From the NCBI GenBank assembly GCA_008632985.1, contig QPGO01000006.1, forward strand, positions 803,138-867,137: a stretch of 64,000 nucleotides of DNA. Reading direction: 5' to 3'. Shown piece after piece: positions 10,522-64,000 of this stretch. A program made the translations under genes and the position numbers. The DNA comes from Psammoneis japonica (Eukaryota). Under the pieces are notes generated by a model, which made no database searches, had not been told where the DNA came from, and saw nothing but the letters and a program-made list of their open reading frames with translations. Every line of letters begins with the position of its first letter. Position 1 is the stretch's first letter.

Positions 10522-11170
10522 ATGCCTGAAGCTTATCTTCGGAATTATACAACGCAACTTAGCAAATAATGATGCTCTCTAGAACGTCACACAAATTTGT
10601 GATGAGCTCTGCAGTAATACATTTACTTCAGTAAGAGCTCAGGTCTCAGCGTTTTGGCACATATCCTTGTTTTGCTTTTAGGCTCTTCTCAGAGTAGCTA
10701 ACAGCTTCTTATGCACACATCTCATTCACTGCATGATTGTCGAGGACGAGAACAGGTGGGACCTTGTCATCATGTGTGTCTAGCGGATAACGTTATTCCA
10801 TCGGTCCAATGTAAGCTCAACATGTTCGAGTGTACACAGTCAGTTTCCGAAGTTTCCTTCTTTTCGCCTCATCTCACATGATGTCGAGATGCGGTGTTCC
10901 ACAACCCTCATTTCACTGCAAAGTGGACCACAGCACCACTCACATCGCCGATTGTTTGGTTTTTTCCTGAGAGGTTCAACTTGAAATTGCAGAGTCCAAT
11001 GCCAAGAGTGGCAAAACCAAGCCCATGTTGGATTGCACGCAAACTGATGGTGCAATCCATCACCCCCTGGAGGATTGAACCATGGGCAGGAAATGTTGTT
11101 TGTGCTTCCTGCGCAAAACACACTGTCTTGATGCTTCTTTTAAGGCTTTTGGTTCAAACCATGCAGCCCA
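9698..11170 (+). repeat. Direct segmental duplication, copy 1 (3' part of the 941-aa gene plus downstream flank)
   Basis: cataccgcaataacgtg.ttcaccgcttcag at 9698 matches 15171. Similarity continues through the stop codon and on to gcttttggttcaaacc (~11145-11160 vs ~16591-16606). Confidence 0.95.
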
Positions 11171-12640
11171 ATTTGAGTTTTGAACTGTGATGCTTTTGGT
11201 TCAGCAAAAAGGACAATGAAAACTCACAGTGCCGTTGCAACACACATTGCCAGGTTTCTTGCCATTCATCAGCCTTGTCGCACAATGAACATGTCATTGC
11301 ATGCTCTTGCGCACAATTTTTAGAAAATCTGCACACAAAGATGTTTCAGCTGGTGTCCTTCTTCTCTGCTTTTTTTTTGTGGACCATGCAAGTGCAGGAG
11401 GTTGGCTGAGCTGTGCAAGTGCAGGAGGTTGGCTGCCAGCAAGAGGGCACCAGCAAGCAAACTGTGTGTGCTGCTGGCACCTTGTCTCAGCCTGCTGCTC
11501 TCTTCTGACTCATCTGCCAACCAAGACAGCAAAACTTGGCAAACAGGTTTGGCAGAGTCAACTGGCAACAACCCTTGTTTGTTTGTGCAACTTGTGTTTG
11601 CTGGAAATCATCCAGCAAGCAATTTGAGGTCACTTTTGGTGCAAAGCAGGCCAACAGAAGCAAAAAAAGGCAACTTCAGCATCGGAGTGCAAGCTCCGAA
11701 AGTTGCTTTGATCAACAACATCAAAAAATTGCCAAACACAAAAGCTTGCAGAGAAAGGGTGCACTTGTCTGTGCTTGAGTTTGTGTGTGCTGTGTGCAAG
11801 AGCTTGTCCAACTGTGCTTTGAGAATGTTCCAGCTGCGGTGAAAATTCTTGAAGTGTCTCTGACTGAAAATGAGTGTGACAATGTTGAGTGTTCAGAAGA
11901 GCATTTTTTGACATTGTTGCCAACAAATGCCTCCCTGAGCAGGGGGGGATCTCATGTCAGTTGGCCCAGGTGTGCAGTGTTTTCTTCACTTTTTGATTTG
12001 TGTGCATCTGTGCTGCAAACGAGTTGGTGACATTTGCTGCACAGCCAGTGTCCCCTGGAAGCTGTGTCTTGTCAGTGCACACACATTGAAGATGTCACTC
12101 ATGTGAGACCAACCATCTGTGCAAATGGGTCAAAAACAATGCCCACACCCAAACGCCCAAGTGTGGAGGCCCCTGGCCACAAGGGGCACGCTTGCCAAAG
12201 GGGAAGAAGGGAGAGACACTCTCGCAGTCATGCCAACAGCAGCCTTTGTGACGTGAGAGAGTCATGCACACAGAAGGCTGACCTTCAGCATGCAAAAAAC
12301 ACTCAATGAGTGCTTGCATGAAGTCTGGCATGGAGCGGGCTTTTGCACAAAAGTGCTGCAGCGCCGCTGTGCCGCTGCCAAGCACACGCACAAAAAGGAG
12401 CCTTTTTTTTCATCAGCTGTGTTTGTGAGGAGAAGCATGTGACCCACCAGCTGGTCTCATGTCTCTGGGAGTCAGAAATGCTCCATGACAGGGTGAAGAA
12501 CATTGACCTTCTCTGTGCAATCATTTAAAACGAGAATTGTGACTCAAGCCGAGCATCACCATGACACCCAAAGAATCGGCTGACACCACCCATCAGCGGT
12601 CAGACCACTGCTGCTGCCAAGCCAAACCCAACTGCTGGCA
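10880..12640. other. Hypermutated CpG/TpA-depleted domain D3
   Basis: TA and CG are nearly absent. The left part is a mutated homologue of the unmutated sequence at 16330-16620. Confidence 0.85.
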
Positions 12641-12713
12641 GACGGCCAGACCGCCGGAATTCGCTCGTTTATTTTCTTTTTTTGATTTTTGATTTTGATC
12701 GTTTCTATGCTTC

Positions 12714-32300: not shown

Positions 32301-32940
32301 TGAGAGACCACAAACTGGGCATTCTCACACTTGTTTGGCAGACATTTCAAGTCACAAGCCAGTTGCCAGTTGCATGAGACATGAAATGTTGATTTGGGAA
32401 CTTCCACTGGACTTTGTGGATGGCAGCAAGGTCTCTGCAAAAAGCACCTTTCTGTGTTCTGGTGTGCAAGACCATGTCATGATCACTTGGCAAAGATGTG
32501 GGGCCATGCACGCAGCTGGGCCCATTGCACATTCTTTAATTTTGATGACAATGCTGGGACAAACAAAGATGATTGCTTCGGGATTTCTTGTCAGATTTCA
32601 TGGTTGAGGAGGAAGAAAAAGAGAGCTCCATGATTCACTCAGTCACTCCAACAGACCTTTTGGATGTGAGCTCAGCCTGCACATCTTGGCAGTGCTTGGC
32701 AATTGGCACCTGCAACATGGCCAGCAATGATGGTGGTGAAATGCTTTGCCTTTTGATGCACGTTGGGACCATGCCTCAGGCAGGTGCACCCAGCTTTTCA
32801 GCCCAAGGTGACAGGGAAAAAAGAAAATGATGGGCATGACAACAGTGAGCAAAAGGTGTGCCAGTTTGTGGAATGAGAGAGGAATTTCATTTCTGTTTTT
32901 ACAACTGAGAAGGAGATGAGGCTGACGGTCAACCTGGCCA
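23330..32940. other. Hypermutated CpG/TpA-depleted domain D4 (nested TE relics)
   Basis: About 9.6 kb with TA and CG both rare. Edges are sharp at ~23330 and ~32950. Confidence 0.9.
25830..27653 (-). mobile_element. Degenerate Ty1/Copia (CoDi-like) LTR retrotransposon: candidate short 5' LTR, gag with zinc knuckle, possible pol remnant
   Basis: CCHC knuckle CWKCDKVGHVKKDC (~26490-26535). Gag-like segments QADGCMETMRNVSSECV and KVKAFNATIVGQHAKAVHHKIE. A weak PDDTM.HAMK motif near 25900. A 118-bp TG...CA segment at 27536-27653. No second LTR was found. Confidence 0.55.
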
Positions 32941-34575
32941 CTGTTCGGATGTGTCACCTCTGGCGAAAATTGTGACGAAGCCCGGTCAGTGCTCCCCCGG
33001 CTGCGACTAAAGCGGAGTGTTTATGTCATGCTCGCTGAGCAGACGTCTATGCCTTTTCAGCACAGGGTCAATGCAACATATCGTGCAATGATGGAATCTG
33101 GCGTTCAAGACGGACTAACGGTCCGTTGAAATGATTATTTGTTAGCCACGATATCGAAGTGCAGTGAAGGAATTTGGTGAGCGTGTTAGAGCTATGCTGT
33201 CGCATCGATTCTCTAAAGCAAATTTCTATCTTTATCGGCTACTGTCATGTATAAATCTTCTCATGAAACCACCCTTGAACACCAAAACGCTCTCGATTGG
33301 TTTGTAGCACTTCATGTGGCAGCGACACGGAATCAAACAAAACGAGCGTTCCCGCTCGAGGTACAATGTCTCGGATTCGTTCTCCACCATCCTCACCCTG
33401 CGGACCAACACTCTTGTTGTTGTTGAAAGAGATTAGCGATTTGGGAGCATCAATCAAGTGGAAACGATCCCGGTCTCGTGGATCGTCCACCATGAGTTTA
33501 CGAGCCATGGCGTCACCACCGGCCAAGTAGAGTGCAATGTTGGCAAAGGGCTTTTGGGACAAGTCGCGCTTCTTGCCATTTCGATCCATGGTGTACAACA
33601 TGCAAGTTTCATTCTCGGGTCCTTCGCGGGAGGGATCCAAAAAGACGGGTTGTTCTCCTTGGTCGTTGGTGGTAGCTCGGAGCCAACCGACTTGAAGATC
33701 ATTGCGTCGAGCACCGACTCGAGATGACGCTGGAAAAGCACGTTCGTGAAGTCTCAATTGACCACCGTCTTGTTCGGACCAATCGTCATTGAGGTAAATG
33801 AGCCACGTAATGGATCGTCGAGAGGCATTTGGTTTGAGTGGGAGTTTGGATCCATTGGGTCGTTTCAGTTCCAAATGATGCTCATCCGTGTGTCTAGCCA
33901 ACAGAGCGCCCTCGCCGTACCGTAAATATTCCATTTCATGTGTTTGCGCCACATCGTTGGCAAGAGTCGGTCGATCGGTCAAGCCTTTGGCCAAGACAGC
34001 CTTGACCTGAGCCATTTTGAGTTTGAGAGTCTGACGCAGTTCGTAATTGCCGACTTGTGGGTCGACAAAGGGCCCGTCTCCACCGGCGGATGAAAAACTC
34101 GGCATGATCCAACGATCATTGGCAGCTTTATCCGCCTTGTTGGGGTTTCTCGATAGAATAAAATTGGTAAAACTACCCGATTCAAAGCAGTTCTTAACGT
34201 CGTCACACACGGCCCGAGTTTCATCCGGCGTCAGCCAGTTGGGTATAATCACGGCACGACCCTCCTCGATTTGTTCCAGAGTTCCGGGTGGAAGAATGTC
34301 ACCATTAACATTTGTTTCAACAGCGACTACTGCAGTTTCCACTGCTCGACGCCATGCGGCTTCGGCACCCAACCCGGCAAGCGAAGCAACCATGGCTTGA
34401 CGACGAGACAGAAAAGACGACAGTCCTTTTTTCTTTTCAACAAAAGTTTCCTCATCGCTGCACTCTTTTGCAAAGCATCTCGTGTTTAGCAGTCTGTCAC
34501 TAGTATAAGCATCAGTTGTTGTTGGTTGAAATCCATTCCAAGCATCGACAGTGCACAACAACACAACAAGACATA
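32570..34575 (-). repeat. Inverted segmental duplication, copy 1 (2OG oxygenase gene plus 3' flank)
   Basis: The reverse complement aligns by eye with 57040-59015 along its length, apart from small deletions. Confidence 0.95.
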
Positions 34576-34618
34576 TAAGCGCTGGAATCGTCACCATGGT
34601 TGGCATGCGGCGCCTCAT
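33245..34618 (-). CDS. 2OG-Fe(II) oxygenase (prolyl-hydroxylase-like), probably plastid/thylakoid-lumen targeted
   Basis: Intact 457-aa ORF with YLRY.EGALLARHTDE (HxD), RSITWLIYLNDDW..DGGQLR and PRAGTLVLFDS..LPHEV..T.RERF..GWF. Signal peptide ..TVDA-W and a twin-arginine-like SRRQAM. Confidence 0.85.
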   Translation of the reverse strand: MRRRMPTMVTIPALICLVVLLCTVDAWNGFQPTTTDAYTSDRLLNTRCFAKECSDEETFVEKKKGLSSFLSRRQAMVASLAGLGAEAAWRRAVETAVVAVETNVNGDILPPGTLEQIEEGRAVIIPNWLTPDETRAVCDDVKNCFESGSFTNFILSRNPNKADKAANDRWIMPSFSSAGGDGPFVDPQVGNYELRQTLKLKMAQVKAVLAKGLTDRPTLANDVAQTHEMEYLRYGEGALLARHTDEHHLELKRPNGSKLPLKPNASRRSITWLIYLNDDWSEQDGGQLRLHERAFPASSRVGARRNDLQVGWLRATTNDQGEQPVFLDPSREGPENETCMLYTMDRNGKKRDLSQKPFANIALYLAGGDAMARKLMVDDPRDRDRFHLIDAPKSLISFNNNKSVGPQGEDGGERIRDIVPRAGTLVLFDSVSLPHEVLQTNRERFGVQGWFHEKIYT

Positions 34619-34830
34619 TTTTGTGCGTTTGCTCGCGAACGTCGCATTGAAATCAGAAGTGGTCGCGTGTGCTGCGAGACGCGCGCTTTTCTCGCGCGCT
34701 CGCCTCGCGCTCGCTTATGGATCCGAAGATCGAAAGACCGACCATGCTAGAGCATGGGCGAAGACATTCTGGAATTCGCACATCGTTCGTCGCCTTCATG
34801 TTTTCACCACATTGTTCTGCAGCAACGGCA

Positions 34831-44608: not shown

Positions 44609-45886
44609 CCGGCCCAACGGATGGATCGCTGGGGTATTCGAATATATTCAAACATTTTAAAATAATATCCTGATTCAATTCCATAAAACAGTCATTTTCA
44701 AACGACACTATGCGTCATGGATGAATGTGCTTCAAAAATTTGAAAAATCCGCGTCCTTCCCCCTCAACCTGCAAAAAGAAAAATGCAAAAGCAACCACCT
44801 GCCACCACCACATATAAAATGCAAGCAGATGGAAATGAGCAAGATCTCTTGCCAGCGGTGCAGTTTTTGGTTTTCTGGGCCAAAACAGAAAGAGCAACCT
44901 TTCAGAGGGCACATTGTGGTGGAAGAAGCGCAAGCAAAAGCAAGCTGCAAGAACAAAGCCCTGCTCAACAAGTCAAAAGAAAACAATGCAACAATGCTGC
45001 AGTCTGTGCTTTGAAAACTAAAAAAGAAACTTCAGGCACCAATGCTGCCAGAGACCAAAGAGAGCTGCAGTGGTGGAGAAGGCCAGAGCCGAGCAGAGAA
45101 AGAGGAGCAGTGTCACACAACAAGCAAAACAAAACAATGCTGTGGCCGCAAGCAGGAGGAGGTGTTCTTGGCCACCAACATGAAGCCTGGCTGCTGGCAG
45201 CAAGAAATCCAAAAGAACCAGCTTTGTTTCCATGGTCAACAAGTCCAACAACAAAAACAAAACAACAAAGGCGACAAATGTGAAAGCACGCACCATCTGC
45301 TGCTGCCTGCGCCAGCGATGCTGGCGGCAATGCGGCAAAGGAAAGAAGCTTGACAAAGTGAGACAGGGGGGTGCTGGGCACAATGTTGTTGTTGCTGGCA
45401 AGTTGCCCCAATGTTCAGCACAAAACCTGTGCCCTCTGGTGTGAGATGCTGCAAAGCCGGGGGCTCAGCTTGCTTTCTTGCCGAAAAGAAAAGCTCTTGC
45501 CCCTCACCACATGTCACCAAAGAAGGGCAAGAATCCCAAGACCCAAGATGTCCCCAGACAAAGATTCTTTGGAAATGCACTTGACTGCAAGTTTTGTGGC
45601 TTGGTGGGAGAGACAAGCAAATTTTCTGCAGCTGCGTGGGGCGCCAGCACTGAGCCAGATGTCAGGAGGCAACAGAGAGCAGAGACGAGAGACAACACTT
45701 CATGTGCACAGCAAGAGACAAGCTTGAGGTGCACCCCTCAAACCCAAGCTGGGACCACAGAATGCATGATGGGCTGCCTGTGGTTGATGTTGTTGCACAA
45801 TGACCTTGACCCCACCCAGCTGCAGGAGGATAGACAAGCAAGAATTCAGGACCCAAATCGAACTCCGGCCCAACGGATGGATCGCT
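44609..45886 (+). mobile_element. ~1.25-kb insertion-like island (domain D5, CpG/TpA-depleted) bounded by a perfect 22-bp direct repeat
   Basis: CCGGCCCAACGGATGGATCGCT occurs at 44609-44630 and 45865-45886. The interior 44720-45830 is TA/CG-depleted. Confidence 0.6.
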
Positions 45887-46964: not shown

Positions 46965-49900
46965 GAGTGCGCCGGACATTTTGGAAAACGAGGACGCAAT
47001 TGGGTTTTCGTACTATAAAAGAGGGCTGTGGCCATGATGGTTTAATGTCAAATCGAAAAAAATTTTGATCTTGCTTCTTTTCGTCTCCACACACTGAATG
47101 TGGACAAACTCTGTTCTCGTTTGCCAGCAAAACATGCCATCATGTTGGAGCTCGTGCATCTCCTTGTGCACGTTATGGAAGTGATGTAATGTATAGCCCA
47201 GCTGTTTCTGTGAAGTTCCACTCTATCCCCTTTCAGAGAACTGCTCTTTTGACACGCAACATGATGTGATTCGCTTTGAACCACGCAGAAAATGCATTCA
47301 AACTGAGACTGATGAAAAGATATTTTGGTCAACCTGCTCATCTGCGATGTCCCTTGGCTCTTGCTCAGCTGTCCACAACAGCCTCAAGCCATCACAAGCA
47401 ACTGCCTCTCACAACAACCAACAGCATTGAACCACCAGCAAGATGCTGCTCACAACTGCAACAGCGCCCATCACTTTGGCACATGTGCACCGGAAAGAGC
47501 TTGGGAGCAGATCGATGCAAAAACAGCCCCTCTGCAACATGCTGCAGTGGCTTCCATCAAAACAAGAACAAAAAGGGTGACACACTTTTGCGCTTGGGTG
47601 CAGACCAAACAGCAGCTTGTGCTGCGAACATGTTGGTGCACAATGTCTCAGCTTTTTCTCTGTTCTGCACTTGTGTTTTGAAAAACCAGCACTTGCTTTG
47701 AACAAGAAGCTGAGACAATCTTGTGCTTTTCTCATTTTGAACAGTTTTCTTTTTGCCGCTCTTTTCACTTTTCTTTGTTCTGAGTCATGCACTCTCCAGT
47801 GCTTTCAACAAAGGTTGTCAATGCTTGCAGAGAATGTTTTTGCACATGAGGCTGTTTCATGCTGCACACTTGAATGTGGGATGTGTGCTCTCTTCTTGTT
47901 CTTTTGGTTTTCTCTTTCAACCCTGGCCACAACTTCTGTTTTCAATGGCAGAAAATGCTTTGGCTCCTGTTGTCAAGCTCACAGCCAGTCTTGTCCTTTT
48001 GGCACCAACAACTGCAACATGGTGCTGCTCTTTGCCTCCTCCAAAAGCTCTCTTTTGACATGAAATGGTGATGAGAGGCTCTTTTGTTGTTCTTCATGGC
48101 AGCAAAAACAGAGAAGCTTCTGTGTCTGAAGAGCTTTTGGGCAATTTCTCACCAAGCAATGGGTGAGAGTTCATCCTGGCACCTTGTGAGATTCAACAAG
48201 CTTGCCACAACACCAGCAAAGTTGCAGAGAGATCACAGCATCATTGTTCAGGGCATGTCACCCTCCTTCAGCTCTGAGGTTGTGTGCAGCACATCACATC
48301 TCTGGGTGCACCAACCCAGGTGATGCAAGTGCCCACAACAATCATGCAGCAGTTTTCTGATGGTGGTTCAAAATGGCCAGGGCAAAAGACTTGCTATTTC
48401 CTGTGCCAGAAGCTGCCTCCAAGATGCAGTGACAAAACATGGCAGATGGTCTGACAACTGGAATTTGTTTGCTCAGGTGTGCACAGTGCACCACCACCAA
48501 AGCAAAAGAGGTGCAGCAAAGTTGAAAATGACAAGTGCAGCAGCAACCATCACTGGCAACAAAACAAGCTGTGGGAAGACGAGCATGGGAGCAGCTGGAG
48601 GTCAAATCAGTGCCTTTGCAAGATGCTGCAGTGGCTCAAATTAAGAGGAAAATGAAGTGACATGGATCATGGTTTGTTTGTGCCCTGTTTGTCAAAACAG
48701 TTCACACTGGGAAAACATGGCAGCACAGAAAACTTTCAACTCTTCCAAGCACTTGTTTTGAAGCCAGACATTTGAAGCCAGTCTTGTTTTAAGAAAATGC
48801 TTTTGAATTTTCAAACATTTGTTTGTTTGCCTCCACTCTTCTCACTCACTGTTTTCCTTGTTCTGGGCCCTGTGCTCTGGTGCACTGAACAAGTCATTTC
48901 AACTTGCAGCAAAGTTGCAGGCATGGTCACTTTGCTGGGGGGGGGGGGGAGAGAGAGCCTCCCCTCTTTACTTTTAGACTTCTCATTCACTCACCATTCT
49001 ATCTCCTTTCTTCCAAATGCAGCAATGGGTGCTGCTTGGGCCATTGCTGAGCTCACACTTTGTCCCACACCCTTGATGCTGACAACAACAACAATGTCAC
49101 ACTCCACTTTTTCTCCCAAATTTTTTTGACGTGTGGCAGCAGCATGTTTTTGTTGTTTTGGGCTCATGAGACAGCATCAAATGGAGGGGCTGCATCCAAA
49201 GAGCTTGGGTGATTTCCCATTGAACAAAGGGAGAAATTGACCAAAGCACTTGTTGGCAAGAAGGTTGCTGGGTTCATTGGTGCCAGTGAAACCATGGAGA
49301 TGGCCACATGAAATGTGCACCATCCCTCAGCTCTGCACTCATGGACAGCAAATCTGGGGAACATTGCCCAGATGGCACAAGTGCCACAAAGATGGCACAG
49401 TCTCAAAGTCTCAAAAAGATTGGGGTGCAAGACTTGCCATTTCCAGCAGAGACAACCACGGCAGCATTGAGGCTGCAACTCTCTATGCCCCATGCATGGC
49501 AGACCTTCCTTCAGATTCAAATGGGGACAGCAGCACTGTGTCTGCATCCAACCAAGTGCCCAGGTGCATCACTCAAGAGAGAAGAAGCTGGCTTCAACTG
49601 TCAAGGAAATCTGCAGAGAGCTGTTTGAAAAAAAAAAACAGGGGGGAAGCATTTGTTTCAACTGAGTTTTCTCTTTTGTGCAAAATGCAAAATGACTGAT
49701 GTCTTGGAAATCACAAACAACATGGTGTGGCACATTGCTAAAAATGCAGGAAGCTTTCTTTCAGGAGAGGGTTTCTCTTGCACACAACAAAGTCAATCAA
49801 ATTGCTGCACTGTGGAGCAGGATTGTGGTTTGTTGTGTTTGCAACCAACACATTGCACCAAAGCTCCCAGCTGCACAGAAAAAAAAAGCTGCACAGAATG

Positions 49901-50499
49901 GTCAAACAACCATTTGGCTGTTGCATTGGTGGTGGTGGTGGTGGGGGGGCATCCTGCATTGAGAACAGAAGATTCAGATGAAGAAGGGGGGTCAAAATTG
50001 CCATGTGATCTCAATGCAGCAAACATTGGTCCAGCAAAGATGACTCTGTTCCCCCCAGAAAAAGTCTTGCTGGGCATGAAGCAGGGCTGCAAAGAGGAGT
50101 GCCAGCAAGAAAGAGGAACACTCCTTCACTCAATCTTTTCATGGGTGTGTTTTGGCAGCTCCCTGCTTTTAGCTGCATTTTTCTTCCACTCCATCTTGCT
50201 CAGCTCTTTGTGCCATGGCAACAAACATTTGTTGTTTGTCTCTCACCTTGCCAAGCAGCTCATTAACCAAGCAAGATGATCTTTCCTTTGCAAGTTTGAA
50301 TGAAGCCATCAACAAAAGTTGCTGTGCATGGCTGACCCCCACTCCCAGCACACTGGGTGCGGCAGGAGCATGCAACAACCAGCCTGAATTTGCATCACCC
50401 TGAGGTGATGCTGCGCCAAAGTAACTTGCAATGGTGCGAGTGCCCCTCACTTCCAGATGCCGGGCTTCGTGGATGCTGGACTTGAACATTGGCCCAACC

Positions 50500-53400
50500 A
50501 CAGCCAACCAATTGTGCAATCCATGGGTCAAATGGGTGAGATGCTCCTCCACTGAATCAAGCAACTCAGATCAATTGCAAGCCAAACAGTTGTCTGCCTT
50601 GGAACAGACAGCTTGCACTTCTGCCTCAGTGTCTTGGCACTGTGAGGATTTTCTTTTCTCTGAATCGTGCCCATGCACGGTGTCATTGTGACTGTCCCAA
50701 AGTTCCCAACATTGAGACCACACAAAACTGCCAATCGTGGTGGCCCAATCTAAGTGCCTTTCCTCATCCAACAAGGAGTGACAAAAACCAGTGGACAACA
50801 AGCACAATGTTTGAGCTTCATTCCACCATGTCACAACGTGGAGAAATGCCCATTGAAAATCTGTCTCCAACCAATTTTGTCTTGAGATTGAAACACCGCC
50901 ACAGCACTCTGATGGACGTTTGCAGAACAAAGCAACTTGTCATGAAACCATCTTTCAAGAGCATGCAGCAACAGATCCCGGAGTGACAGAGATGTGTGCA
51001 TGTAATCACACTTCTTCCGCAAGCCCCATAGAAAGGTGCACCGCCAAGACTCATTGTGTTTGCACCACAAAACATGGTCTCTGTCTTCAAGCCAATGTTG
51101 GCAGTGTGTGCAGCAGTTGGGACACATTGGGTTGCAGTGGTGGACAATCTTGTTGATTGGCAACAGATCTTGTGCAAGTTTCACTTTGCTCATCTTACGC
51201 TGGATGTTTCTGGACATCAGTTTGGAAATGAACTTGCCAGTTGATTGAAGAGCACACCACGTCAGTCCATCTGCACTTTTCCTTGACATGTTCCATCAAG
51301 GACAAACTGGATGCTTCACAGCAAAGTGCTGATTTGAATTTAGAAGTCACAGATGCATCTTGTGCAATCATCATTGCAGAACAGTGGGGCATGCAAGGCA
51401 CAAGCAGAGTCTCACCATTGTGTTGGCCTTGAAACGCGCTCGCCAGCCGGTCAGCACTGACGTTCAATTGTGCAGGGAGAGGCAAGGACTCGTGTGGGCT
51501 GTTGCTGTCCACCTTCAACCCACTGCATGTTCACAAAGATGTCGGCTTGTTCCACATCAGAAGGACCTGGAAAAGTTTGCAGCATCAAAAAGATTTTGTG
51601 CACCACGTCCCAGTCAGGAGCCAATGTGTTGGCAATGTGATGCCGACAATGACAGTTGTTGAGCCAATCAAATTCTTCCGGATCCATGGGAGGTGGTGGC
51701 AGGGAATGAAATTCTTCACATTTTGGACCAAGGATGAGTTGTTGCAGCAGGCATCCACTCCATGGGTCAAACTGCCCCTGCAGAATTCCATCACTCAAAC
51801 AAGGAAGCGCAAAATGGACAAAAAGCCATGTGCCTCAGTGCAGCAGGATGATGGTTGAAAACCAAAAACTGGTCTGGCACAATCAACTGAGGCAATGCCA
51901 TGAACCACTGATGTCCAACCAAAGGTGCCTTCAAAGTGCAACACCAAACCATTGCTGCCCACAGCTGCACAAAATTGCACCAAGGAACTTGCGATTTCAA
52001 AGACAGAAGCGCAGAGAGTGAGATTGTAAAACAATGTAGATTCCCATTTGGGCAAAGACTGCAGCCAAGCTTTGAAATCACTGCAGACAGGGTTGTTTGG
52101 AGGGACAGACACCTGTGACATTGATGAGCGGATGCTGCATTGTCCATCCGGAGTTGTGTCAACCAAAATGGGGGATGCCAAAGGAGAGAGATCAGGGACC
52201 ATCTCCAATTGTTGCAACGACTCAGCGCATCCATTTGTGATGAGAAAATCTTCAAACTCAGCAGCGGATTGGATGTGCAAGTGTTCTTCCAAGGGTTCAT
52301 GATGCGCCAAATGTGGCACTCTCATTTCAGGCTCAGGGGCTGCCCACTGACCAGAAGGATGTCGCAACTCAGTGGTGAAGTCGTTGCACAATGGGGAGCA
52401 CGCCCTCCGCCACTGTTTCCAAGCTCTTGGAGATGGTCCAGCCTGCTTGATGGGATTCAAGGAGGAAGTGCCACTCAACAGGGATTGTTGACCTTGAAGC
52501 ATGAAGTGATCCAACTTTTTGCCATCAGGGAGAGCAACATCAGAAATGGCAAGCACACAGAGGTGCAAACGGCAACAATTCACCCACCACATTCTTTGTC
52601 AGAGAAAATCCCCGAATCTGGCACAACGTCCACAACACACTGATCATTGTCTTGTTGAGTTGGAAGAACACTGGTGCAGTCAAGCTTGAAGGATGAATTG
52701 GCCCTCGCAAGAAAGGATCACATTGACATGAACCACTTTGACTTGCAGTGAGGGAGTTTGGAATGTACACACAACAGGAAACTGATGCCCGTGCCTGTCT
52801 GAAATTGCATCCATGCAACTGCAACCCTGGACAAATCATGAGGTTGTCTGGTGCTGCACCAGTGGCAAAGAAACTGCAAACACTGAGCAATCCCTTGTTC
52901 AATGTCAAGCAACTGGAAGCCACCACCACCAAGGGTGCACGGTCTACACAGTGCATCTTGTTTGGCATTGCAGTTGTGTCCACACTTGGCAAATGTTGCA
53001 CACATTGCCTTTCGTTGAATCTCCAACAACTCTTTTGGTGAAAAGCATGTGTTCAGAAGCATGTGTGTCATCAAAGATGGGCAGCATGCAAAGTGATGGG
53101 TCTACGCTTTGTGTCCACCTGAGGGGCATGACCGCAGGAAGACAGACACATCATCACTCTTCTTTTTGAGGGCCTTGCATTGAGTCTTCTGAGTTCCAGC
53201 AGGCAACTTGCAATGGCTCAGTGTCTTGTGAGACAAGCATGCGGAGAGCTGAGTGCTAGAGTGCTTGGTGGATCAATCTGTGGAGTGTGTTTCAATGTCA
53301 ATTTTGTCATTGTACACTCGTAAATGTGGTTCACCATCGGCCGTGAAAAGCCACTTGACAGCATGGAAGGAGCACTTGGGAAGTTCCAATTCATGTCCAG

Positions 53401-56200
53401 CTGCATCAAGGAGGTCACACCACAGCTGATTATCTTCTTGCATTCAAAGGACCAGTTCAAGTGCTTCAGGTTGAGGGTCTACACAGAAGTTGTTTACTTG
53501 GTTGGACGTGTCATTGATGTGCCCTCTGGTGAACACATGCAAGGAAATGGAGTGGTCAGGAGATTCAAAGCATGCACCATGAGCCTCACTGTCAAATGAC
53601 CAAAACAAGCTGTTGCAAATCTGACTCCAACAAAAGGGCAAATTCCCACTGCCTTGTCCTGTGCCGTAGATGGGATGCACATCAGAGTGAGAATGTAAAG
53701 AGACATTGAGCACCATGCAGTGCAGCATCCGCCATCTGAGTAACGACCTTGGGCATTCCGTCACTGCAACTCTCTGTTGTTGTCAAGGCCGGGATGCTCC
53801 TGTTGCAACATGAGGCACAATCGCCATCACTGTGAATGGCGGTCATCTGAGACACTCTGCTGATCTCCAACATCAGCTCTTTGAGATAAACTGGAGCACA
53901 GGCATTCAAAAAGGGGCGTGTGCCATAAATCCAAGGATTGTGCAAGTGGCAATGCTCTGTGTTCTGTGCCAGGGCTCTCCATTTCACACTTGAAATAAGT
54001 TGAAAGTCTGCTTTGTAAACATGAATGACTCAAAGACAATGAATCTTGTTGTTGCCTGGCTCCTTGAAGATCACAACATTGACAATGTCTTTCCACCTGT
54101 CATGAGAGCATCCCCACTTTAGGGCACAATTGAGCAAGTTCAATCAAGTGCGGATCAAGGTTTGTTGCACTTTGTTCAGATGCAAGCACTCAGGAGTCAG
54201 GTTGCCTTCTGGTGCTTTGGAGTCAGAATGTGAGTGAGTTGCATGTGATGCCTTCCAGTGACCCAAGTCAAGGCCCAAGCAAATGGAAGTTGTCATTGTT
54301 TCTTTCCACAACTTGAGTTTGCCTTCAAGATCAAATTCAGTCAACAGTTTGGACACTGAGACTGGAGATTGCCTTTGCAGGCATTGGACAAAAAGAGAGG
54401 TGGCTTTGTCAAGAGATGTCATGTCACACTTGCCATCTAGAATGATGTCAGCCATCACGGTGTCACCTTCACATCCCAAGTCCACGGACAGTGGAGGGAC
54501 TGTGGGGTGTGTGCCATGAGCTTGTCCAAAATGCTTCTGATTGTAAGAGCAAAGAGCTGTGGCTGCATCTTCTGGAGCATCAATTGTCATCCAGTCCTTG
54601 CATTCTTTTGGGTTTGTCACTGGGTTGCATGGTGCTTGGACACTGCCAATGCCTGTGTCTTGTTGTGCTTTGCATGCATTGACCTTCTGGAACAGTTTGG
54701 CAGTTTCCTCCGCCTTTCAAACATTCCTGACAATGGTGGCTGCTTTGCGTGTGGCTGCCATTCCTTCAAGGTCCAATTTGGTGATCTTCTTGGACAATTT
54801 GCATTTGCAATGTTCCACACATCATTCCTTTGCTGCTTTCTTGCACTTGGCCTGTGCCTGTTGTAAAGCTGCCTGACATTCTTCAAAGGTTTCAATGGAG
54901 TGGAAAAGGATCCAGTGAGCTTCAAGTGAATCTGTTGCATCTGGGCCACACAGTCAAGACGGGTCCACATCATGGACAAAATGCAAGCAAAGACATTATG
55001 AACACAGTGGCAAAGGTCCACCAACTCTGCCAACCAATCCAGTTCACGATGAGAGCGGCACTTTTTTTCAGCAGCCAAGGAAAACTGCAAGAGATCCCCA
55101 TCCAACCATTTGGCCAATTTGTGATCACTGGACTCCATGAGTTGGTTGGACCATGCCAAAAGGAGCGGCTGTCAAGCATCGGACCAACAGCAGTTGGGTG
55201 TGAGGTGACCTGAGGTTTGGACAAAGCTTGAATGTCTTGGAAGGCGGCTTTAGGGAGGTCAACTGTTGGGTTTCCAAATGAGGCCATTGTGTCAAAATTG
55301 ACAAAATGTGCTCAATGATCTGATGCAACTCTGCAGCCAAACACTTTGTAACCACCAAACCAAGCCACCAACAAGGCCCCAGGAGAGGCAAGGACACAAT
55401 CCAACCATTTAGATCCTTGGGCACATGTGGTGAAATGGGATTTGCCCACAATGTCAAAGAGCACATCAGACAAGTTAAACCATTGAGCCAAGGTGGACAA
55501 GGAATCCGTGCCCACTGAGAAATCCATGTTAAAGTCTCCAAATGACACCACCTCATGATGTGGCTCTGCCAAGAAATCTTGAAGAACACACAACAGGTTG
55601 GTGCAAAATGCTTTGCATGGGTCCAACACTTTGCATCCCTGTTGTTGCAAGAGATGAAGTTGTTGCATGCAGGCCGTGGTTTTTCCCGGTTGGCATTGGT
55701 TTTTGGCACAAACTCCATGGCTGGAAATGAACATCACCTGCCATCCATTGCGTCCATCAAACAATTGCATGGACCATTGCCCCAAAGGATCAGATTCCTG
55801 AGATTGATGCCACACCAAAATCGAGTTACATGAAAAAATGGCAGCACCACCTGGTTTGCATTGAGTTGAAAAAGGGGCAGAGTTGCTGGAAAACGTTCCT
55901 CTGCCATGCAAGAGAGACCCAGATGCAGCAGAATGGCACACAGATAAAATGCTGATCTGAGTGGCATCCAACCACACTTCAGAAATGCCAACAACATCTG
56001 CTTGGATTTTGGTGGCGATCTTACATGCTGCCTTGACATCTCCACCCCACTTGTTGAACTTACACCCATTGGCATTGAAGGCGTAGAGGCAAGTGTGTGG
56101 CTGCCTGCCTCCAGACCAGTGCTGCCATTTGTGAGTTGAGAAGCTGTTGCTCTGAGTTTTTCGTCCCATTCCATTCTGCTTGTGAGCCACTTGAGCAGTG
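50500..56200 (-). mobile_element. Degenerate non-LTR retrotransposon (LINE, Ambal-like architecture: APE endonuclease - RT - RNase H - Zn finger)
   Basis: APE (55312-56190): FNANG, DVVGISE, DPLGQW, GDFN, GSKWLDCV, SDH. RT: PIYGTGQGSG and HINDT (degenerate YIDD), ~53480-53700. RNase H: VGSNGLV..GTFGW..SSCCTEAHGFLSILRFL and AQLNVSADRLA. C-terminal C..C....EDRDHVLWC. Many stops and frameshifts. Confidence 0.85.
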
Positions 56201-57039
56201 CAACCACCTTTCCACTTTTGTTTTCAACCAACATTTTGGAGCAGCTTGCCTTGTGTTGGGACATCTTGTGCTCAAGCTGTGCATCACTGCACTGTGATCA
56301 CATTGTGCTTTTGAAGAAGCACAACTTAGAAATGTCTGCAATGTGCAGGTGCAAGAAGCAACTCTGCCAACACAGTCTGGAAACAAGCTGTTGTTGCTTT
56401 CCTTTGACTCACTGACTCAAACAGCTCCATGGGAAAAGTTTTGTGAATGGTCTGTGAGCCAGGCACAGCTGTCACCTCCAGCACTTTTCCAGTGGTGGAA
56501 ATGAACAAACAGCTGTCATCTGTGGCCTGTCTTTTGCAACCCAGTGGGTTTGTAGAGTCTAAGCTGGGCCTGGTTGCCATGTTTGCTGCTGGCAGCTCTG
56601 ATGCCATTGTTGCATTTCAAGCTGATGGCCCTTTGGTTGTGGTCAGTGAGCCAGGCCCTGCGAGCATCATTCCAATGAACGCCAAGTCCACCATGTCTTT
56701 CATGGCACATGCAGATGAGCCTTTCACAGCCACCAGTGCTGGTTCTCTTGCAATGCCCACCAACTTGGCAGCACTTGATGACCTCACATCTTGCATGCTC
56801 CAGATCCCAAAGATTTAAGTCCTTGGCCACTCCACTGCTCCATGCAACAGTGGCATCATTCGCAAGATGGAGGGTTGCACCTCTGCTGGCTGCAGCCCCC
56901 ACAACATTGTCATCTGATGTGCTGATGAATGCCACCATTGCTTTGTTGGTGGTCAAGTCTCCTCATCTTTGGATTTTTGACTTGGTCACTGCCAGATTTG
57001 GATCTGTGTGATGCTGCCCTTTGATGATTTGAGCGGTTG

Positions 57040-58345
57040 TTTGTCTTGTTGTGTTGTTGTCCACTGTCAATGCTTGGAATGGATTTCAACCAACAACTGC
57101 TGCTTGTGCCAGTGACAAAGTGTTAAAAATGGGATGATGTGCAAAGGATTGCAGTGATGAGGAAACTGCTGTTCAAACAAACAAAGGACTGATGCCTTTT
57201 CTGTCTCATTGTCAGGCCATGGCAGCTTCACTTGCCGGGTTGAGTGCCAAAGCAGCTTGGTGTTGAGCAGTGGAAACCACAGCAATGGCTGTTGAACAAA
57301 ATGCAAATGATGGCATTCTTCCACCCGGAACTCTGGGACAAATGGAAGAGGGCTGTGCCATGATTGTGCCCAAGACTGTGTGCATCAACATTGAGAACTG
57401 CTTTGAATTGGGAAGTTTTGCCAACTTCATTCTGTCAAGAAATCCCAACAACAAGGTGGACAAAGCTGCAAAAATGATTGTTGGATCATGCCAAGTTTTC
57501 CATCCACCGGTGGAGACGGGCCTTCAATCAACCCACAAGTTGGCAATTGTGAATTGCGTCAAACTCTCAAACTCAAAATGGCTCAGGCCAAGGCTGTTTT
57601 GGCCAAGGGCTTGACCGATTGACCAACTCTTGCCAACGATGTGGCTCAAACACACAAAATGGAGCATTTGCGGTGTGGAGAGGGCACTCTGTTGGCAAGA
57701 CACATGGATGAGCATCATTTGGAACTGAAATGACCCAATGGATCCAAACTCCTGCTCAAACCCAGTGCCTCTCAACAATCCATTGTGTGGCTCATTTGCC
57801 TTGACAATGACTGGTCCACACAAGACAGTCAATTGAGACTTCATGAACATGCTTTTCCAACATCATCTTGAGTCAGTGCCCAACGCAATGATCTTCAAGT
57901 CGGTTGGCTCCAAGCTGCCCCCAATGACCAAGGAGAACAACCCCTCTTTTTGGATCCTTCTTGCAAGGGACCCAAGAATGAAACTTGCATGTTGCACATC
58001 ATGGACTGAGATGGCAAGAAGCGTGACTTGTCCCAAAAGCCCTTTGCCAACATTGCACTCTCCTTGGCCGGTGGTGATGCCATGGCTTGCAAACTCATGG
58101 TGGACCATCCATGAGACCGGGATTGTTTCCACTTGATTGATGCTCCCAAATTGCCAATCTCTTTCAACAACAAGAGCATTGGTCTGCAGGGTGAGCATGG
58201 TGGAGAACAAATCCAAGATGTTGTGCCATGAGTGGAAATGCTCATTTTGTTTGATTCTGTGTCACTGCCACATGAAGTGCTGCAAACCAATCAAGAGCGT
58301 TTTGATGTTCAAGGGTGGTTTCATGAGAAGATTTGTGCATTGCAG
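57040..58345 (+). pseudogene. Hypermutated pseudogene copy of the 2OG oxygenase at 33245-34618 (duplicated flank continues to ~59015)
   Basis: Fragments GILPPGTLGQMEEGCAMI, FANFILSRNPN and LFDSVSLPHEVLQTNQERFDVQGWFHEKI match the intact gene, with TGA stops and deletions. Confidence 0.95.
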
Positions 58346-59949
58346 CAGTCAATGAAGGCAGAAATTTGCTCTAGAGAATCAATGCAGCAGCACAGCTCTA
58401 GCATGCTCACCAAAGTCCTTGACTGCACTCCAACATCCTGGCTGACAAACGATCATTTCAAGAGACCATTGGTCTGTCCAGAATGCCAGATCCCATCATT
58501 GCATGACATGTGTTGCAACAACCCTGTGCTGAAAAGGCACAGACGTCTTCCCAGCAAGCATGACACAAACACTCCGCTCATGTTGCAGCCAGGGGGGGGG
58601 GCACCAACTGGGCCTCATCACATTTTTTGCCTGCAGCAACACATCCAACCAGTGGAGAGTTGATGTCAGCCTCATCTCCCAGTTTTTTTTTTAATGGAAA
58701 TGAAGTTCCTCTCTCATTCCACAAACTGGCACACATTTTGCTCACTTTTGCCATGCCCATCATTTCATTTTTGCCCTTTCACCTTGGACTGAAAAGCTGG
58801 GTGTGCTTGCCTGATGTGTGGTCCCAATGCGCATCAAAAAGGTGGGGCATTTCACAACCACCATTGGCCATGTTGCAGGTGCCAATCACTGAACACTTCC
58901 AAGACATGCAGGCCAAGATCACATCCAAAAGTTCTGTTGGAGTGAGCAAGTGAATCATGAGGCTCTTCTTTTTCCTCCTCAACCATGAAATGTGATGAAT
59001 CCCACAAGTCATCTTGGCCATGTTGTGTTCTGCCATGAAATGGCAAGGCCAGGAAAATGCAACTTGCCAGGCACAGAACAGGGAAATGGTGGCAAGAAAG
59101 GAGAGAGAGTGCATCCAAACCAACTCATCGACAAAAGCAAATGTCCAAATAGATCAAGGTTGCACCTCATCTTTACGACATCGAAACTGGGGATGCAATC
59201 GCCAATCAATGCACCGCTTCTTGCATGGTCCAAGCCAACAGATTTGCAGGACTCTGGCAGTGAGTTGCAAATGGACCAGAACTTGTCCACACAGGGAGAG
59301 TGAATGCTTTTAGATGCCACCTGTCAATTGTGTTCACTGTGCATGCATCCTGTCTTGGCTGTTCATTGCGGCTCTTGGGCATCATCACTGATGGTTCCTC
59401 TGGAAAGAGATGCAAAGGGTGCTTTGGTCATCTGGAGACTGTTGTGACTGTTGAAGTGGCAATCCAAAAGCAGCCCAAGTGTGCTGTTGGCCAAGTGCAG
59501 GGAAGGAACACAAAAATTCTCAGTTGTTTCATTGCCTTTCTTTGTGTTGATGTTGGATGTCTGACAGGTCATTGTGGTCTGGAGCAAACCAAGGGACATC
59601 ACAAACTTGCTTGATGCATTGTTTGGAAATGGCAACAAACACAGAAATTACAACAGGGTCATCCACAGGGCAGACATGGTTGATCAGCGCACCATTGTGG
59701 GAATTCTTTTTTGTCATGCATTGACTGGAAGTGCAGCCACAGCCTGTGCACATGCCAAGTGACTGTCGAGCTGTGCCAGAGGAGGAAGAACCAGTGGCAG
59801 GACTTTCACCAGCTTTCTTGGACAGGGCCTTGAAATGCATTAGATCAAGGATGGGGTGGGTGGCACGTCACCAATGTGTTCTTTGAGGAGCACATGCATC
59901 TTTTTTCAGTTGGAAATGACAGATGTAAAAAAAACACATTGCTTTTGAG

Positions 59950-60430
59950 GGTGATGTGGCACAACCATTGCATGTTGCCCCGGAAGCAACTTTGATTCCA
60001 ACAGGCCCACTTGCCACCAGAACTGCTCCTTGCATTTGGAGATTGCCAAACAACAACGTTGCAGCAGGTGGCTTCTGCAGGAATCACTTTGCCATCATTG
60101 ACACATGTTCTGGTCATGAGTTTTGCAGGTTCAATGCTGGAGGGCAGCAGAGAGCACTGGACTGCTTTCTTTCTGCTGACAGAAACACAACGTTGAATGG
60201 TGTTGCGGTTTGCACCCCCTTGAAGGATGGCACAAATGAAGTCCTCCTTCTAAATCACTCTTCCCCAAAAGATCTTCTTGATCAACCATTGTCACCGAAC
60301 TGTGACTTTGGAGTTGGTTTGCATGGTGAAACCATTTGTGAAGTGTTGTGGTTCTTCTTGTCAAACAATGCATTTTTCATCTTGTCTGGAAGTGAAGATT
60401 GCTCTGCAAGGCTGTCTTTGTGTCAATCAA
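59950..60430 (+). pseudogene. Relic of a WD40 gene resembling WDR6/Trm734
   Basis: GGF..NHFAIIDT..GHEF.RFNAGGQQR...GLHGETICEV......ILSGSEDCSARL resembles the WDR6 GG..R, LHG.EI and GSED motifs once Cys/His are read back as Tyr. Confidence 0.45.
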
Positions 60431-60949
60431 GTGGTGCAAGACCCATCGTTGTGCGTCAGACATTGAAAACAAGTTTGTTTGATGCCTTGCAACTGCCGAT
60501 GAGTGAATTTTTGAAAGTGTGCAGCCGTCAAAATGAAGCCAAGCTATTTTTATCATGGGAAGAATGGAGCTCTGCTGGAGGCAGTTCAACACCAGATCAC
60601 GTGGAACCCCACTTGCTTCAGTGTCAGCATTCACCCAGTCATGCACAAGAGCAGGACATGCAGTGTTGCGCACCCTGTTTTTCTGACAACATGTGGCATC
60701 AATGATTGTGTCAGACATTAAAGGGAGCTGTTGCAATGGGCTTTGCCAATTTTCTTTGCTGATTGCAACCTCTTGTTCCCTTGGCCTTCTCTCACAGCTT
60801 TGTTGTCACTGACATCTTTGTCTTGTTTGACCTTGCAGGGCATGAGCAAAATGTCCGAGAGACATTGTTTGGACATTGCATGTCTGTGCAGTGATCTTAA
60901 ACAACCAGGCACAACTGGCTGGGCATGAACAACTGAAATGACCAAACTC

Positions 60950-63460
60950 AGTCATTTTTGGGACTGCATCACTTGGAGTCAAAGGCAGAGTCCTCGGAGA
61001 GGATGGCAGCGCAATTGCATTTCACTCTTTGTGATGAGTGAACCGTTGAAGGAACCGTGCATTGACCATGAGGCAAAGTTTGAGCATTCTGATTTGGAAA
61101 GTGCAAAATTGACTCAATTGCATGATGATGGCAGCACTCACATTAAAAAGTGTCCACATTTTGATGGAACTCATGGCATTGAAGCATTGTCATTTGTTGA
61201 ACATCGTTTTTGTAAAATTGCTGCTAAATTGGAGCATGCTGCTGGAGAGGAGTTGTTTGACAATTTTGAAGAAGCATTGGCTGACACAGTGGAAGACAAA
61301 TGGCGATTTTGACTGACAGCATTGTTGATGCTGACAAAATTGTTGCACGATTTGATTGAGAGATGAGCCATTTTCACTTGTCTCATTGTGACAATGAAGC
61401 ACGTGATGCAATGATTGAACCCTTTCCAACCTTGAAAAAAACATTTAAATCTGAAGTGCAGGCACATGCGGATTGCATGGAGACCTTGATTCAACATGCT
61501 GACAAGCCACCTGGAAACAATCCTCAAGTCAATGATGCCCAGAAGAAGAACATGATTTTTGACAGCTTCCCTTGTCTGTGGCACAAGATGTGTGCTCGAG
61601 TGTGATGTGCAACAGCCACTGACAGTCTTGCCAAGATCATCAGCTGCATGAACGATGAACAATCTTTTGCAGACAAAAGTGGCAACAAGAAACAAGAGAA
61701 GAAATGCAAAATAATTCCACCTTGTCTCAAGCTTCAAGGTGCAGCCGTGGCAACAGCACTTGAGTGGAACCCAAGGCCAAGTGTCCGGCACACCCCAGCC
61801 ATGATCACAAGTGGAAAGATTGCATTTTGAATCCAGAGAGCCAAAGCTGTCAACCAAGGACGGACCATGGAGGTTGTGGCAGAGGTCAAGGTGGAGGCCG
61901 TGGGAACTGTCAAGGATGAGGATCACAAGGCAGAGGAGGTCAAGGTGACTTCCAATGTCAGGGACATGGCAACTGCAGCAAATGCAGCAACCATGGAGAT
62001 TGTGGTTGTGGAAATTGTGGTGGTTCCCAGAATTCTCATGGAGGTGCATCCCGCCATTGTTTGAATCAAAATGGCACCCAAGCCAACAATGATGCGCAAG
62101 GCCATGGAAATCTGGCTGGATCAGCTCCTCCTGGTGGCTGGCAAATGGAGTTGCACCATTTTGATCAAGGAGGGCCTCATGAGATGCAAGGTGGAAATGG
62201 GTGCAATCAAGGCAGTCGTTTTCCACAAAGCCAACAAAGTTGGTGCAACTGATGTGGGACGGAAGTGCCCAAGTCAGAGTGTGTCACTCAATCTTTTCAT
62301 GTTTTGTGTGATTGTGAAAATTGTTTGTGTTTTAATGTGGATGAAAGTGTTGGAAACCTGATGGAGTCCTGTGCTGTGAATGACAAGAATTGGGCGGCAC
62401 TTTGGAGTGTGCCATGCCAACCCCAAAAACTGCAACTCCCAAACCAATGAATGTGGTGCCTGCAACGTTGATGGCTTTGCGCACAATTCAGAATCAAGAG
62501 AGTGAGCAACAAGTGTTGTGAGCACTTTTAGATTCTGGAGGCACTGCTGACACCCTTGTGCATTCTCAAGTTTCACCCAAGGGAGCCAATCCAATGGCAA
62601 ATGACAAGGGATGAATGAGTTTCGAGACTGCAGCTGGATGGCATGAATCATCCCGGCATGTTGTCATGAAGGATCTGGTGCTTCCTGATTTTGATAAATC
62701 CAAACAAGTGGATGGTGTTGTTGCGCAAGTTTTGATTCTTCCTGCAAGTGCAACATGACATTGGGTCAAGATTTTCTTGCCAAAGCTGGGACAGTGCTTG
62801 ATTTCTGATTTGACATTACAAAGTGGTCAGATGCATCAATCCCAATGAAGCAGTCTAATCATTGGAACAAGGTGCAGAGCTGGTTGGAGACACTTGATGA
62901 CCACGAGGAAAGTGATGAGTCTGAAGGAGATTTGCAGGTTGAAAGTTGCATGTTGGATGCCAAGCATGAAAAGGTTTCAACAGGAAAAGCAGCTCAAGCT
63001 CAAACGCATTTGACCATGGAACAATGTAGCCAATTGCAGGCCGTGCTTGAAAAGCATGAAACTCTTTTTGATGGCACACTCGGCAAGTGTCCGCATGAGA
63101 CAGTCCATTTGGAAGTTGATCCCAATGCTGTTCCCTTTCATTCTAAAGCCCGTGAAGTGTCAAAGAATGATGAGGAAGTTTTTAAAAGGGAGTTGAAGCC
63201 TCTCTGAGACATTGGAGTTTAAGAACAAGTGGATCCAATGGAGTGGGCAGCTGGAACGTTTGTCACTCCCAAGAAGGATGGACGAGTGCAACGGGTGTCC
63301 AATTTTTGAGGACTTAACAAGGTCCTTCGACACAAGGTCTGCCCCTTGCCTGTTGTTCAAGATGTGATTCATTGATGCTCAGGGTGCAAATTTCTAACCA
63401 AGCTGGACCCCACAATGTTTCACTGCCATGTTGAACTTGACGAGGAATCCAAGGACCAAG
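60950..63460 (+). mobile_element. Degenerate Ty3/Gypsy LTR retrotransposon (gag - protease - truncated RT)
   Basis: Gag-like CPHFDGTHGIEAL..EELFDNFEEAL. Protease ALLDSGG (62522-62542) and NMTLGQDFL..G.VLDF. RT N-terminus LEKHETLFDGTLGK, WAAGTFVTPKKDGRV..VSNF*GLNK..CPLP..QD, KFLTKLD...ELDEESKD. It breaks off before YxDD. Confidence 0.85.
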
Positions 63461-64000
63461 GAAGAAATGAGAGCCACCCAGCAGCAAGAGAGCTGCTTCC
63501 AGCTCAGTTTGGTTTTCCCCATTTGGGGATTCCCCAAAATGGCCAGGGCAAGAGGGGGGTTACATTCCCCTTCTGGGGAATTCCCGGGAAATGAGGGCAA
63601 TTTTGAGGGAAAGAATGTCTGAAAGAGGTCAGGGGAGGGGAACAAAAAACGAGTGGAATCCGGCAATTCTGAATTGATTTGGCTCAGGCGCAAGTGCTTT
63701 TTTTATCTTCTGCGGTCGATCGAACTTACACAGCAGCTCTAGAGTGGCGGAGCAGAGAACTTCATTCACACGGCACTCCAGGCTGTTGCCATTGCACTGT
63801 AGATTAATCTACTTCGCTGCTGCCACTGCTGTTGATGCCACTGCTGTTTTCCATCTCCTCCACATTGACAGAGGCTGGCTTCAAGGTTCTTTGTTGGATC
63901 ATCTCAACCAAGCATTCATTGATCATCCATGGCTCCAAGGCTGCATCATCAATGCCATCATAATTCGGAGGCATTCCAAGGACACACCACCCACCACTTC

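Follow-up and report, generated by a model that had tools for sequence, protein, structure and literature searches.

Repeat domains of the Psammoneis japonica genome have undergone a mutational process that turns A:T into G:C pairs in chromosomal DNA. The process acts on both strands equally, is nearly confined to TpA steps within sharply bounded domains, and reads the base following the altered adenine: 5'-TAY-3' is changed and YTAR survives, a rule confirmed in three separate data sets. A 5' T raises the rate far above A, C or G, a 3' C or T raises it about 3-fold over A or G, and the optimum lies near 5'-ATAYC-3', with TAAA, TAAT and TAGA the coldest contexts. The reading that we favour, with a probability of about one half, is an adenine deaminase that works on DNA within silenced repeat domains. 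The process itself is real and of a barely known kind; the literature searched, outside which most subscription journals fall, yielded no report of TpA-only hypermutation in diatoms.

Erased domains and surviving tetramers

The window, that is, the whole 64-kb stretch of DNA analysed, lies on contig C8 of a 91-Mb assembly of 597 contigs, whose genes have diatom proteins as their named homologues. Two-state segmentation, performed on the TA/CG density itself, assigned about half of the window to six depleted domains with sharp borders (Table 1). TA and CG occur there at 2-6 and 6-15 per kb; outside, the figures are about 40 and 55 per kb. TG/CA is elevated inside the domains and G+C is unaltered.

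Table 1. Depleted domains, duplicated gene region and surviving TA steps in the window
Feature	Positions	Strand	Remarks
Small TA/CG-depleted domain	1418..3715		5 TA remain
Small TA/CG-depleted domain	6363..7400		4 TA remain
Small TA/CG-depleted domain	10893..12642		3 TA remain, 3/3 YTAR
TA/CG-depleted domain	23356..32899		TA 2.9/kb; edge cuts the duplicate's source copy at ~32900
Source gene, intact open frame, 489 aa stop to stop	33245..34714	-	Pfam 2OG-FeII_Oxy_3, E=1.5e-17
Small TA/CG-depleted domain	44753..45858		4 TA remain
TA/CG-depleted domain with dead copy	47285..64000		TA 5.6/kb, CG 10.8/kb; two-state segmentation
Dead inverted copy of host 2OG-Fe(II) oxygenase gene region	57022..58995	-	TA and CG steps mostly now TG/CA; 4 TA remain
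Surviving TA	58372..58373		CTAG here; CTAA in the intact copy
Surviving TA	58399..58400		CTAG here; TTAG in the intact copy

YTAR makes up 67 of the 137 TAs surviving inside the domains of the window, compared with 227 of 1263 outside, and RTAY is reduced to 5 sites against 371. The tetramers are not equally depleted (chi-square over 10 tetramer classes, p=6e-21). Relative to outside DNA, a mere stand-in for ancestral composition, RTAY tetramers persist at 0.005-0.025, the mixed classes at 0.06-0.18 and YTAR at 0.15-0.46. Over 194 kb of C8 the corresponding counts are 164/337 inside and 805/4628 outside for YTAR, and 11 and 1367 for RTAY; tetramer survival in a Copia family (see below) ranks in the same order as the window ratios (Spearman 0.87). 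This order follows from the palindromic nature of TA, which offers one target per strand: RTAY, with two fast targets, is lost first and YTAR, with two slow ones, last. An earlier note on this DNA had described the residual TAs as mostly YTAR or GTAA, and GTAC, ATAT and ATAC as very rare. The rarity is borne out and YTAR is indeed enriched, but it amounts to only about half of the window survivors, and GTAA/TTAC (30 of the 137), of which the note had listed GTAA among the typical survivors, is a mixed class. The survivors cited there at 58369 and at about 58396, 7153, 54436, 11318 and 27641 are all present: ctctagag begins at 58369 (TA 58372-3), the TA of ctctagc is at 58399-400, those of tctaga are at 7155 and 54438, and those of tttaga at 11321 and 27644.

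Rates in a gene duplicate and two repeat families

The direction of change is known for the dead gene copy because the intact source copy serves as its reference. The two regions (57022-58995 and 32591-34593) share 82% identity, and the source retains 47 TA and 111 CG within 32900-34593. Alignment of the unmutated source part (32920-34593) with 57022-58674 gave A>G changes at 30/45 TAY, 8/47 TAR and 45/716 other adenines (TAC 16/21, TAT 14/24, TAA 5/26, TAG 3/21; outside TA, AA 18/245, CA 11/236, GA 16/235). TAY exceeds TAR at p=1.9e-6 and TA exceeds AA at p=2.5e-12; AA shows no excess over CA/GA in this old pair (p=0.42). Opposite 57900-58600 the intact copy has 23 TAs, of which the dead copy kept 0/5 RTAY, 0/12 mixed and 2/6 YTAR. 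At the 12 mixed sites the TAY strand alone was changed nine times, the TAR strand alone once and both strands once, and one site carries a transversion. The two TAs left in that interval are thus both YTAR, and the claim made for it in the earlier note, that TAY is hit and YTAR spared, holds for the duplicate as a whole.

Two multicopy families from elsewhere in the genome provided rates. The Copia (RVT_2) set covers about 4 kb; 30 of 47 matches were taken and 27 copies used, two diverged copies and one near-duplicate being excluded, and 173 of 201 candidate TA-rooted sites were kept. The Helitron set is an 886-bp segment in 14 copies, the 4 least mutated giving polarity and the other 10 being scored; a Pfam Helitron_like_N match in the neighbouring segment identifies the family. 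Rates were derived from a competing-risk model, with intervals from bootstraps over sites because copies partly share descent and are not fully independent. Copia rates were 1.18 for TAC, 1.18 for TAT, 0.39 for TAG and 0.36 for TAA, a TAY/TAR ratio of 3.15 (2.6-3.8). Helitron changes (TAC 62/137, TAT 116/271, TAA 56/353, TAG 21/127) yielded 0.84, 0.79, 0.20 and 0.22, respectively, and a ratio of 3.84 (2.4-6.6) over 45 sites. Of the asymmetric Copia sites, 72 favoured the TAY strand and 16 the TAR strand. Codon selection was ruled out as the source of the Copia ratio, which lies at 1.8-3.9 across all three codon phases and non-coding sites. Beyond the trinucleotide, A at -2 and C at +2 each raised the rate about 2-fold in both families (A and G at -2 being unseparated in the Helitron), and T at -3 halved the Copia rate; context accounts for 45% of site variance. 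TACG was not preferred, its rate of 1.12 (0.84-1.49) comparing with 1.68 for TACC and 1.43 for TATC.

Changes outside TA were infrequent. AA>AG occurred at 92 of 10465 opportunities in Copia, against a mean TA hazard of 0.77, so that TA is about 90-fold faster; that AA would lag far behind TA, the check put forward in the earlier note, is seen here as in the gene pair. GA contexts in Copia changed at 0.2-1%, and TC steps showed no specific mutation. The non-TA targets form a secondary NAY class: in Copia 95 of 670 NAY sites and 38 of 764 NAR sites were changed, and all 25 non-tandem Helitron events fell at NAY, with none among 1726 NAR opportunities. AAY was altered about 2-fold more often than CAY and GAY combined in Copia (40/182 and 55/488 sites, p=7e-4); the Helitron numbers (8/61 and 9/106) are too small to tell, and the window pair showed no difference. 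Tandem TAA>TGG changes were enriched about four times. In Copia the second A of TAA was altered in 12 of 309 copies after the first A had been altered, versus 6 of 591 after alteration of the opposite strand (p=0.005); the Helitron counts were 5/56 and 0/96. A "TGA context" was ruled out as the origin of the tandems, fixed TGA sites being altered in only 20 of 3440 cases.

Both strands were affected alike. The Copia strand factor was 0.94 (0.81-1.09), with no coding-strand bias in that family, and independent copies take TG or CA at one and the same site. TA-rooted Copia sites comprise 3458 TG/CA states, 16 CG states and 23 that include a transversion. Editing at an RNA stage was ruled out by the strand symmetry and the Helitron target; since a Helitron and a host-gene copy are mutated on both strands, the target is chromosomal DNA inside the domain and no RNA stage is needed. 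The partner copy outside the domain was spared. ApT methylation (6mA) was rejected as chief cause, TAC being as fast as TAT. A hairpin-loop effect was not seen among 80 sites tested (33/80 with stem, p=0.28), nor was same-strand coordination beyond 4 nt, a test weakened by saturation. The sequence reads either way, as an A-centred change in TAY or a T-centred change in RTA.

Individual Copia copies have lost 63-93% of their TA and 2-24% of their CpG. Two other C8 domains, probably young elements (C8:739353-750887 and C8:892532-897517), have TA erased (5-6/kb) and CG retained (48-65/kb). Together these data place TA erasure before CpG decay, and with TA loss so far ahead, 5mC deamination is not needed at each site. 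The two losses are correlated across Copia copies (rho 0.63), for which shared age would also account. CpG decay has flanking preferences of its own, at 24/53 ACG, 39/78 TCG, 9/45 CCG and 9/36 GCG in the window pair (32920-34593 versus 57022-58674), and 6.1% ACG, 4.7% TCG, 4.0% GCG and 2.9% CCG in Copia. At the Copia terminal repeat end (first ~20 TA sites aligned) nearly all TAs are retained in about 7 of 27 copies, the interior being mostly erased.

Candidate enzymes and alternative mechanisms

A transition-only process with a strict 5' T and a 3' rule suits a base-modifying enzyme. A zinc-dependent adenine deaminase, with a TadA/ADAT2-like or Tad1/ADAR-like fold, would be recruited to silenced repeat chromatin and would turn A into inosine where short stretches of DNA open transiently, at times two adjacent As together. 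Replication would then fix G in place of inosine, and many dispersed events would build up over time, long single-strand runs being absent. The TAY preference and the rarity of AA>AG argue for a catalyst that reads sequence, as the earlier note had supposed. Its pointer to TadA fared less evenly: TAY is the optimum of TadA editors, but TAT equals TAC, A appears to be the second-best 5' base and TAA>TGG tandems are enriched. Native TadA prefers the UACG of the anticodon loop; neither a preference for TACG, the tRNA-Arg loop sequence, nor a hairpin effect is found here. According to the accessible text of PMC10879117, TadA-based editors have top activity at TAY; they and bacterial TadA share with the present process this A>G peak and low activity before a purine. 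AAY is absent from the motifs that text lists as promoted, whereas AAY exceeds CAY/GAY in Copia; the engineered enzymes also edit CAT, GAC and GAT well, whereas non-TA sites here are some 50-100 times colder. The ADAR/Tad1 group shares the 5' order, T>>A>C,G in Copia (C and G unseparated) resembling the U>A>C>G given in the accessible part of PMC3113232. There, human ADARs prefer a 3' G and ADAR1 ranks U last, unlike the 3' C/T and far stricter 5' T found here (Copia TAG at 0.39, TAC and TAT at 1.18). ADARs can edit DNA in DNA/RNA hybrids, as stated in an excerpt of PMC5389660. No single known deaminase fits both flanks, ADAR matching the 5' order only and TadA editors the 3' Y only, and the signature matches no known enzyme exactly.

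Five deaminase families searched in the genome included no dedicated enzyme, only widespread-looking genes. Profiles PF00383, PF14437, PF14439 and PF02137 matched only dCMP deaminase, TadA, ADAT2-like, nucleoside/guanine-deaminase-like, RibD and two A_deamin genes; PF18785 had no match. ADAT3 was likewise not recovered, and such searches thus miss divergent members. The deaminases found look like housekeeping genes. The TadA, bacterial-type and pan-diatom with an N-terminal extension, keeps Asp at the position aligned with E. coli D108 and is probably an ordinary RNA-type enzyme. Two repair activities bear on a deamination product. AAG/MPG is a glycosylase that removes inosine from DNA, and its profile (PF02245) found no match in the genome, a point in favour of deamination. 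Endonuclease V can act on inosine; its gene is present, a point counted against deamination, as are the TAA>TGG tandems and the AA excess over CA/GA, which are also polymerase-like, and the correlation between TA and CpG loss. One of the A_deamin genes bears what we take to be an ADAT1-like motif. The second (L035, C79:343058-346890) is divergent and diatom-wide (centric and pennate), with zinc motifs that look intact and without a dsRNA-binding domain; compared via its relative P0198, it matches the first at 26% over 167 aa. The ADAT2-like gene has Asn at the D108 position, as does the candidate in the available text of a preprint on Bigelowiella (bioRxiv 10.64898/2026.01.13.699255). Three further loci were noted: a dead copy, with its TA erased, of a gene resembling nucleoside deaminases (L012, C151:67547-67717), a related deaminase joined to a part that resembles a 2OG oxygenase (L007, C79), and a tandem-domain dCMP deaminase locus found twice with identical scores, possibly on an allelic contig (L003/L004, C41 and C317).

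Alternatively, the mutator might be a polymerase of the Y family, either one like Pol iota or a Pol eta paralogue with a specialised role. Recruited to silenced repeats for patch repair, it would insert G across from a template T where the primer ends in T. G is the base that Pol iota favours opposite T, the genome has a Pol iota-like gene (L098, C22) and two Pol eta-like genes (L099, C18; L101, C19), and both the Copia AAY excess and the TAA tandems of the two families are in keeping with such an enzyme. REV1-like and Pol kappa-like genes are present as well. The Pol eta motif is WA, with a TA:AA gap of roughly 2-fold, against the 90-fold gap here, and AA did not exceed CA/GA in the old window pair. 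Patch synthesis also predicts same-strand runs, whereas coordination is limited to 4 nt (saturation again weakening the test). Somatic hypermutation by Pol eta shares A>G change on both strands, with TA above AA and both raised by a 3' T, in the accessible part of PMC8749460. Because Pol eta hotspots, too, become more mutable with a 3' T, the 3' rule by itself has no power between deaminase and polymerase, and the earlier note's proposal that sequence preference would separate them stands only through the TA:AA ratio and the few transversions. These two, more than the TAY rule, make a mammalian-type Pol eta unlikely: transversions are below 1% (23 against 3458 transitions), whereas the signatures linked to Pol eta contain T>G and T>A as well, in the portion of PMC7608067 available. 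TAC is moreover 3-fold above TAG, whereas the hypermutation data give TAH equal to TAG (PMC8749460, same part); the accessible portions of PMC7884765 and PMC9858799 give no TA:AA ratio. We rate a polymerase origin, through a mutator resembling Pol iota or a diverged Pol eta, as possible but rather unlikely.

The pattern read on the opposite strand, RTA>RCA, would equally result if a dioxygenase turned the T of 5'-RTA-3' in repeats into 5-hydroxymethyluracil or 5-formyluracil and the oxidised T paired with G. 5-Formyluracil does mispair with G. Dinoflagellates tolerate high 5hmU levels, TC steps here lack specific mutation, and no Tet_JBP (PF12851) candidate was found in the genome by a loose search that divergent members could escape. 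Dinoflagellate 5hmU, made by TET/JBP enzymes, is repeat-enriched and replaces T mostly in TA and TC, in the available text of PMC11572971. We regard thymine oxidation as improbable, and explanations other than those named here, taken together, as equally so. Far less credible still is the absence of any context-ruled mutator, with selection, common descent, newly created TA steps or a sequencing or assembly artefact accounting for the survivors. Some Copia states are shared by descent, ancestral composition is known only by proxy, from outside DNA, and the single run with this DNA may be the assembly's own source. This view is largely refuted already by the presence of the rule in separate data sets and all codon phases, by the direction at asymmetric sites, by independent copies taking TG or CA, and by the de novo occurrence of the process in another alga, Bigelowiella natans, described in the preprint's main text (bioRxiv 10.64898/2026.01.13.699255). 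Contigs of that run carry the erased sequence at even depth, with 2 differences over 57000-59245, which argues against a base-calling artefact. Among the 40 of 430 rows of run-versus-assembly differences listed, 12 are single-contig, full-depth differences, all transitions; 4 of them, being TA/TG or TA/CA, hint at recent activity, and 5 are CpG-type.

Relation to known hypermutation systems

The closest parallel comes from B. natans, in which integrated DNA of NCLDV and virophages undergoes de novo A>G/T>C hypermutation at TpA only. As set out in the main text of Mettrop et al. (bioRxiv 10.64898/2026.01.13.699255), it is episodic, raises the de novo rate about 1000-fold and is attributed by preference to A-deamination, with ADAT2 proposed. 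Shared with that main text's account are the near restriction of A>G/T>C to TpA, the effect on both strands (TpG and CpA products) and the confinement to foreign or mobile DNA, Helitron and Copia being identified here and most window domains carrying no annotation. The diatom targets differ, being Copia, Helitron, other repeat domains and a trapped host-gene copy, and mutation here approaches saturation, with CpG decay coming afterwards. Neither a 3' preference nor any wider flanking rule is stated in the preprint's main text ("trinucleotide", "context" and "diatom" are absent from it), although its motif figure or mutation table might. Repeat-induced point mutation (RIP) of ascomycetes likewise hypermutates bounded regions confined to repeats, by transitions at a dinucleotide target on both strands alike. 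Its C>T changes create TpA, whereas TpA is destroyed here, and RIP mutates both duplicates, whereas here the domain copy alone is affected and the source keeps its 47 TA and its open frame. A repeat-directed A:T>G:C mutator is thus the chemical mirror of RIP, so far represented by one preprint from another supergroup.

To our knowledge, natural DNA A>G editors are barely documented, and A>G DNA editors had to be engineered from TadA. It is conceivable, though doubtful, that diatoms and chlorarachniophytes have in common a naturally occurring adenine deaminase that is targeted to chromatin, acts on DNA and defends the genome; it would amount to a natural base editor for adenine. Its signature, with T>>A at -1, Y at +1, A at -2 and C at +2, would differ from those of TadA, ADAT2/3 and ADAR. 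One candidate may be the second of the Tad1/ADAR-like proteins, which occurs across diatoms and lacks RNA-binding domains. New here are the rates from multicopy families, the -2/+2 effects, the NAY class, the tandem edits, the strand and codon-phase controls and the gene inventory. They define a quantitative signature that any candidate must meet (TAY/TAR about 3, TA/AA about 90, transversions below 1%, occasional TAA>TGG tandems) and a direct basis for comparing the process with that of Bigelowiella. The mutator also skews the dating and annotation of diatom repeats, because tyrosine codons are lost first.

Other features of the window include imperfect 108-129-nt repeats at 21994-22461, in a 451-aa open frame with no Pfam match, and a LINE-like remnant of an endonuclease/exonuclease/phosphatase domain within the large domain (55312-56223, minus strand). 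A direct duplicate (9698-11071 and 15171-16531, 89% identity) is largely unmutated, the end of its first copy extending into the domain that starts at 10893.
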